The position numbers and the translations under genes were made by a program. From assembly GCA_020051695.1 (NCBI GenBank), contig JAGVQM010000019.1, forward strand, positions 79,937 through 143,936: a DNA stretch of 64,000 nucleotides, given 5' to 3'. Below the pieces are notes generated by a model. The model did no database searches. It saw nothing but the letters and a program-made list of their open reading frames with translations, and was not told the origin of the DNA. Positions 40,383-40,598 of the stretch are shown here, one piece after another; position 1 is the first letter of the stretch, and every line of letters begins with the position of its first letter. The DNA is from Candidatus Zixiibacteriota bacterium (GTDB lineage: Bacteria; Zixibacteria; MSB-5A5; WJJR01; JAJRUJ01).

Positions 40383-40598
40383 TTACAATTGGTCGAGGAC
40401 CTCTGCGTCCTCCGGAAACCGTCCGGTTTGCTGCTTGGAAAAGATCAACTTGCCGTCGGCTTTGACCTCGAAAACACCGCCGCTGCCTCGGATCAATTCC
40501 ACTTCGATACCCGTTTTTTCTTTGATTTTGGCCGCCAGACCGGAAGCCCGGGGAAGGTAGTTTCACTCTACACAGTATTTAATGGAAACGTGCGGCAT
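40383..40598 (-). CDS. SelW/Rdx-family selenoprotein with in-frame UGA (Sec) in CxxU motif
   Basis: AGGAGA ribosome-binding site, then ATG. Translation is MPHVSIKYCVE-U-NYLPRASGLAAKIKEKTGIEVELIRGSGGVFEVKADGKLIFSKQQTGRFPEDAEVLDQL, with TGA at 40563-40565. It matches the Rdx signature (V.I.YC..C/U..LPRA...GG.FEV..DG.L.FSK...GRFP). The ORF finder split it at the TGA. Confidence 0.65.

Follow-up and report, generated by a model that had tools for sequence, protein, structure and literature searches.

A SelW-like gene with an in-frame UGA beside an hgcAB cassette: very likely an ordinary bacterial selenoprotein gene, and most likely an incidental neighbor

In the window analyzed here (the whole stretch of 64,000 nucleotides), a ribosome-binding site and an ATG open a reading frame that meets a TGA after only 11 codons, directly upstream of a set of genes linked to mercury methylation. 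The locus raises two questions: whether this TGA ends a peptide or encodes a selenocysteine, and whether the product has anything to do with the genes beside it. A preliminary description of this DNA had proposed an uncalled selenoprotein gene of the SelW/Rdx family with a CxxU motif, and both the translation and the Pfam and NCBIfam matches agree with that proposal. We consider it very likely that the locus is a genuine selenoprotein gene with a SECIS, and an ordinary one of the bacterial SelW-like type (Rdx family). The coding sequence runs from 40383 to 40598, as first described, and the length of 71 aa is likewise exact; translation assigns it to the minus strand, where it reads MPHVSIKYCVE*NYLPRASGLAAKIKEKTGIEVELIRGSGGVFEVKADGKLIFSKQQTGRFPEDAEVLDQL*, the asterisks standing for the TGA and the final stop. 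The in-frame UGA is codon 12 (40563 to 40565, minus strand) and completes a CVEU redox motif with Cys9 and Sec12; 59 sense codons separate it from the TAA stop at 40385 to 40383. An AGGAG Shine-Dalgarno sequence (40604 to 40608, minus strand), read from the sequence, stands 5 nt 5′ of the ATG at 40598, in accord with the ribosome-binding site and start codon originally noted. The frame remains open in the 5′ direction as far as 40958 and contains an alternative ATG at 40790; we place the start at 40598 because the ribosome-binding site is located there and because all homologs begin 8 to 11 codons ahead of CxxU.

For profile scans, the selenocysteine of the Rdx protein was replaced by cysteine. 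In this form, the protein matched Pfam PF10262 (Rdx) with 73.3 bits (cutoff, 22.6; E value, 1.8e-20) over profile positions 1 to 71 of 74, in agreement with the end-to-end match stated in the preliminary description. It also exceeded the cutoffs of NCBIfam NF041051, “SelT/SelW/SelH family (seleno)protein” (98.8 bits versus 88), and TIGR02174, CXXU_selWTH (61.8 bits versus 34.2). Seven solved Rdx-fold sequences were matched by sequence, the best of them being Atu0228 (PDB 2fa8; E value, 5e-11), whose CTQC aligns with the CVE(U) of the Rdx protein. By its sequence pattern, the predicted protein is thioredoxin-like; the fold characteristic of the family is a beta-alpha-beta arrangement of the thioredoxin kind.

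Among 5.8 billion predicted proteins searched, 37 homologs were found, most of which are fragments of 43 to 61 aa that begin just past the TGA. Fragments of this kind typically arise when gene callers truncate a selenoprotein, and the Rdx gene is indeed truncated by gene callers at its selenocysteine UGA. Six full-length database homologs carry W at the selenocysteine site; in the sole one of these that was checked (P0001), the DNA has TGA and the entry is flagged as nontranslating under the standard bacterial code, and we attribute its W to a gene-caller artifact on a short contig. Cysteine forms, which the preliminary description had suggested seeking, are represented by two more distant database entries with TGT or TGC at the site (P0025, with CVEC, and P0036, with CVPC). 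The TGA occupies the same column as the cysteine of these two proteins and of PDB 2fa8, that is, the position of the second redox cysteine, where it had been placed at the outset. One close homolog (L163, from a metagenome contig of 564 nt) has CGA (Arg) instead of TGA at positions 155 to 157 while keeping the hairpin sequence; the CGA is due to a sequencing error or else marks an inactivated allele.

A scan of genomes, limited to one genome per species, gave 80 Rdx loci from many phyla, among them members of the Planctomycetota, Verrucomicrobiota (Verrucomicrobiales), Gemmatimonadota, Acidobacteriota, KSB1, Calditrichia, Eisenbacteria, and Proteobacteria. The selenocysteine column is TGA in all 80. 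Given this column and the Pfam E value, the Rdx reading lies far beyond chance. The nearest genome homolog (L001) is 68% identical, and the Rdx protein is thus a new sequence of a type already known. Among the same loci, the SelW-like genes of certain Verrucomicrobiales metagenome-assembled genomes (MAGs), mostly marine, have TGA at both redox positions (ILY-U-GM-U-NYKPQA); these UxxU loci are L053, L057, L059, L062, L063, L067, L068, L069, L074, L076, L077, L078, and L080, in most of which the Rdx gene lies near position 10000, and the same downstream hairpin follows UxxU. The selenoprotein reviews examined here describe SelW-like proteins as CxxU proteins with one selenocysteine and mention UxxU for other families only.

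Bacterial SECIS elements are small hairpins within the open reading frame, ca. 15 nt past the UGA, with G and U in the loop; the conserved loop G is expected ca. 16 to 37 nt from the UGA. A GGUCUG-containing segment, CCGGGCUUCCGGUCUGGCGG, had been singled out in this region from the start; it is exact and spans +15 to +34, counted from the U of the UGA as +1. The SECIS-type hairpin itself lies at 40530 to 40548 on the minus strand (+18 to +36) and consists of the pairs G18-C36, G19-C35, C20-G34, U21·G33, C23-G31, and C24-G30, with a U22×C32 mismatch. Its apical loop is GGUCU (40541 to 40537), and the conserved G26 and U27 correspond to 40540 and 40539. We aligned, without gaps, the 48 nt from the TGA onward in 74 distinct sequences. 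Columns 19/20 to 24 pair with columns 30 to 34/35 around a 5-nt loop (columns 25 to 29); every sequence has G at position 26 of this loop region, and U27 shows conservation of at least 90%. In this register, 89.4% of the cells are paired, and changes on both sides of a pair were found in 53 cells distributed over four of the six pairs, compared to 14.3 ± 2.9 when columns were shuffled (none of 500 shuffles reached the observed number). The covariation score of 0.391 fell to 0.05 to 0.094 when the 3′ arm was slid by 1 to 3 columns, and RNAalifold recovered the same helix independently. Moreover, the compensation spans codons, with amino acids changing jointly, as in the change from GCC GCC AGU CUG GCG GCC to GCC CUC GGU GCG AGG GCA. 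The compensatory covariation is strong and identifies the hairpin as a predicted bacterial SECIS, and the earlier suggestion of a SECIS-type hairpin containing GGUCU after the TGA is thereby confirmed across 74 sequences.

The U·C mismatch is found in five sequences in all, the nearest relatives of the window gene (L001 to L003) among them. When folded alone, the window hairpin in the family register has a free energy of −8.4 kcal/mol, and the dominant structure in the ensemble of the free RNA is a shifted hairpin of 9 bp (+13 to +34; −10.3 kcal/mol). The stability of the window fold gives no signal above that of shuffled sequence (z = 0.35 to 0.78). The single-sequence fold is uninformative, the best fold is off the family register, and the SECIS is detected only by comparative analysis. 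Presumably, a ribosome that pauses at the UGA would occlude the 5′ arm of the shifted hairpin and thereby favor the family register. Neither of two Rfam searches, one covering the whole window with gathering thresholds and one covering positions 40300 to 40700 with E values of up to 10, gave a match to the hairpin. In the cysteine homologs, the hairpin register still forms four of the six pairs, although with two sequences only this is a weak control.

Might the TGA nevertheless be a true stop, so that the locus encodes an 11-aa peptide or is a decaying relic left after the loss of selenocysteine decoding? In the 64-kb window, ARAGORN found no tRNA, and hence no tRNA-Sec there; profile scans found no SelA, SelB, or SelD domains in window open reading frames of at least 225 aa; and a scan of the window for read-through TGA codons in search of a second selenoprotein gave only implausible, low-complexity extensions. 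That neither the machinery nor other selenoprotein genes were found in the window would suit a true stop, as would the imperfect hairpin of the window sequence and the fact that the HgcA encoded nearby has CCC instead of the common CU. However, the 59 codons past the TGA are open and follow the family profile through its end, with the invariant GGVFEV...LIFSK...RFP residues retained, whereas a relic should gather stops and frameshifts. The ribosome-binding site and the start codon are intact as well, and the hairpin retains the loop G and U and five of its six pairs, its U·C mismatch being common to four other sequences. We therefore regard a true stop as very unlikely. An alternative genetic code in which TGA is read as Trp or Gly, to which the six database homologs with W might seem to point, is a negligible prospect and is refuted for the window by its stop-codon usage, given that TGA terminates 10 of the 31 family-assigned genes there, that the proteins ending at these stops match their profiles to the end, and that the DNA behind the one W entry examined reads TGA at the site. 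As TGA is otherwise a normal stop, the standard genetic code applies and the TGA of the Rdx gene is a local recoding site. From the intact gene and hairpin, selenocysteine is very probably decoded in this organism.

Following the known bacterial selenocysteine pathway, translation would begin at the ATG at 40598, and at the UGA of codon 12 the hairpin 18 to 36 nt downstream, with G26 and U27 exposed, would recruit SelB-GTP-Sec-tRNA(Sec); selenocysteine would then be inserted in place of termination. The 71-aa product would have a Cys9-x-x-Sec12 redox center and, judging from the family motif, would act as a thiol/selenol oxidoreductase whose center presumably cycles between a selenenylsulfide and a reduced form. 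A small thioredoxin-like redox protein is the best-supported assignment for the predicted product. The gene is stand-alone: no neighbor family is conserved across phyla among the 80 loci, where we found lineage-specific synteny only.

In this regard, the gene resembles other bacterial SelW-like genes (PF10262, TIGR02174, and NF041051), which likewise stand alone with no conserved operon partner. The likeness extends to the size of ca. 70 to 80 aa, the CxxU ca. 10 residues from the N terminus, the GGxFEV and LIFSK/GRFP blocks, the UGA-encoded selenocysteine, and the small in-frame hairpin with a G in its loop; nothing essential differs, the U·C mismatch in the hairpin being common to the nearest relatives. 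The mammalian proteins SELENOW, SELENOT, SELENOH, and MIEN1/C17orf37 belong to the same Pfam family and share the CxxU/CxxC motif, and human C17orf37 (PDB 2ljk) matches the Rdx protein by sequence with an E value of 2e-9. Eukaryotic Rdx selenoproteins, however, have a SECIS with a kink-turn in the 3′ untranslated region that is recognized by SBP2, whereas here the recoding signal follows the UGA directly and is part of the coding region. The solved cysteine-containing Rdx proteins (Atu0228 [2fa8], 2ojl, 3dex, 2oka, 2obk, and 2p0g) align with residues 2 to 70 and place their CxxC in the CxxU column; they differ in being ca. 100 to 108 aa long and in having Cys for Sec, for which a SECIS is not needed. 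As for the hairpin, the SECIS of Escherichia coli fdhF is also a stem-loop within the open reading frame that starts just over 10 nt past the UGA and has G and U in a small apical loop (G23/U24, with G26/U27 as the counterparts here), but the stem sequence of the window hairpin differs and shows no evident bulged U. SelW-like proteins were represented by 427 Sec forms and 56 Cys forms in GOS (PMC2398784), and a 2026 review counts them as high-confidence selenoproteins of prokaryotes (PMC13188914).

The second question concerns the neighbors. The preliminary description had noted an arsR-hgc operon downstream of the Rdx gene; arsR and hgcAB are indeed present there, but with two additional genes between arsR and hgcA. 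All five genes are on the minus strand, namely, that for an ArsR/SmtB-type regulator, which is the first gene of the cassette (39840 to 40229; Pfam HTH_5 and NCBIfam NF033788), that for a Cys-rich membrane protein of 195 aa with no family match (39256 to 39843), that for a DsbD_TM/CcdA-like membrane protein (38551 to 39246; Pfam DsbD_TM), hgcA (37384 to 38538; NCBIfam NF040863, 444 bits versus a cutoff of 275), and hgcB (37076 to 37372; NCBIfam NF040864, 122.5 bits versus a cutoff of 99). CC or CCC motifs occur in all five products. Haft and Gwadz (2022) described selenoproteins among HgcA and HgcB, with Sec within HgcB and within HgcA (as CU, in an N-terminal extension). The HgcA of the window has an N-terminal extension of this kind (38470 to 38538, minus strand) with SCCCSP rather than Cys-Sec, so that the genome would use selenocysteine in the Rdx protein and not in HgcA.

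In the arsR leader, a TTGACA-like box and a −10 box are accompanied by repeats of the TTCGAAATATGTCGAA type. These repeats make up ACATATTTCGAAATATGT (40226 to 40243), a perfect palindrome of 18 nt that overlaps the arsR start codon and is a candidate ArsR operator. These leader elements and the palindrome are common to the arsR genes of other hgcAB loci, which suggests that the cassette brings its own promoter and operator. The common pattern, seen at 40226 to 40260 on the minus strand of the window and in L082, L093, L109, and L126, is a TTGACA-like box, ca. 17 nt, TATAxT, and TTCGAAATATGTCGAAxTATCGAA; the ATG lies only ca. 7 nt past the −10 box, which suggests a leaderless arsR mRNA.

For comparison, we examined 80 metagenome loci that carry the closest relatives of hgcA (47 to 60% identity), 36 of which have more than 2.2 kb of sequence upstream of hgcA. 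A DsbD_TM/CcdA-like gene lies directly 5′ of hgcA in eight of them (L082, L085, L093, L096, L109, L118, L145, and L150), and in L082 and L085 it is preceded by a homolog of the gene for the 195-aa Cys-rich protein. The order arsR/(Cys-rich)/CcdA-like/hgcA/hgcB recurs in L082, L085, L093, L109, and L118. A full-text search of the literature on hgcAB biology found no mention of DsbD in that context, the lone match being a selenoproteome review. One possibility is that the 195-aa protein and the CcdA-like protein form an undescribed thiol-redox accessory pair of HgcAB.

Comparison with syntenic relatives shows the cassette to be an extra block. L002, a MAG labeled Ignavibacteria, is collinear with the window over ca. 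25 kb at 58 to 78% protein identity, and L001 is collinear over a shorter span at 39 to 60% identity. In both, a squalene/phytoene synthase gene (SQS_PSY) begins ca. 120 nt after the Rdx stop, while in the window 3.46 kb separates the two genes, a gap filled by the five-gene cassette. On the other side of the Rdx gene are a divergent gene for a 180-aa protein and secDF (the latter seen in L002). The DNA of the SQS_PSY leader is conserved at the nucleotide level between the window (ca. 36975 to 36920) and L002, and this is where the extra block ends on its distal side. Set against positions 10214 to 10292 of L002 and 10214 to 10330 of L001, window positions 36980 to 40382 form a clean indel of ca. 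3.4 kb, which looks like a compact, self-contained hgcAB cassette. The Rdx gene belongs to the conserved chromosomal backbone, between the 180-aa gene plus secDF and SQS_PSY. We infer that the indel arose by insertion, with loss in the relatives as the alternative; insertion is favored by parsimony, since two relatives are without the block, and by the horizontal transfer that has been reported for hgcAB (PMC7438021). In its GC content, the cassette does not stand out as foreign.

It had been suggested that the position of the gene beside a mercury pathway is meaningful, and one may imagine the Rdx selenoprotein as an accessory of mercury methylation whose selenol captures or hands over Hg(II) or keeps the Cys-rich HgcA, HgcB, and membrane proteins reduced; such a function would explain its placement beside arsR-hgcAB. 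The gene is, after all, on the same strand as arsR and only 153 nt upstream of it, with no terminator predicted between the two, and the cassette is unusually rich in thiols. Moreover, selenium is already tied to the pathway, as selenocysteine is common in hgcAB-carrying anaerobes and many HgcA proteins are CU selenoproteins (bioRxiv 10.1101/2022.07.06.499078). The suggestion did not withstand three independent comparisons, however, namely, of the Rdx loci, of the hgcA loci, and of synteny. No homologs of hgcA, hgcB, arsR, or the genes for the 195-aa and CcdA-like proteins were found within 10 kb of any of the 80 Rdx loci (63 of which have at least 3.5 kb of downstream sequence), and tblastn and motif searches found no Rdx gene near hgcA in any of the 80 metagenome loci, including L082, L093, L109, and L118, which have the same gene order. 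The syntenic relatives L001 and L002 keep the Rdx gene at its site without the cassette, and the 153-nt gap contains the promoter-like arsR leader and palindrome seen in other cassettes. Nor does the link appear in the literature on hgcAB neighborhoods and selenoproteins; the preprint just cited mentions neither Rdx, SelW, nor ArsR. We consider an accessory role of this kind highly improbable.

Since the cassette is an extra block of ca. 3.4 kb, apparently with its own promoter and operator, the adjacency of the Rdx gene and hgcAB is most likely incidental, an accident of gene insertion rather than a functional link. The Rdx gene and the cassette would presumably be transcribed separately, although some read-through transcription from the Rdx gene into the cassette is possible. 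An extremely unlikely variant is that the SelW-like protein was co-opted in this lineage after the cassette arrived; transcription would then continue from its gene into the cassette, and the selenol of the protein would be a Hg(II) or thiol-redox partner of the Cys-rich HgcA, HgcB, and CcdA-like proteins. If true, this would be the first physiological role for a bacterial SelW-like protein. In all, a selenium-mercury connection at this locus has very little probability.

Two other parts of the window were noted. One is a cluster at 12074 to 17689 (minus strand), beside a sigma-54 activator, whose genes specify a membrane redox complex; it encodes an NrfD-like protein fused to a multiheme cytochrome c3 domain, a 4Fe-4S dicluster protein, a CCG-domain Hdr-like protein, and a Nitro_FeMo-Co domain protein; it fits an anaerobic lifestyle. 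The other is a gene at 1894 to 2208 on the minus strand, just 5′ of a CusB/HlyD-type membrane-fusion protein gene; its product, a small membrane protein in which cysteines are densely clustered (DDGCCENCQTTCHCVSC), may be a metal-binding accessory of an efflux system.

As a selenoprotein, the Rdx protein adds little to science, in that the family has been known since 2004 to 2005 and curated NCBI models exist. For annotation, the consequence is practical: a 71-aa SelT/SelW/SelH-family selenoprotein should be called here, instead of the gene being dropped or truncated. The negative result is the more useful one, as the selenium-mercury link suggested by gene order fails when tested by comparative genomics. 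A discrete hgcAB block of ca. 3.4 kb, as seen in the comparison with relatives, fits the reported horizontal mobility of hgcAB.
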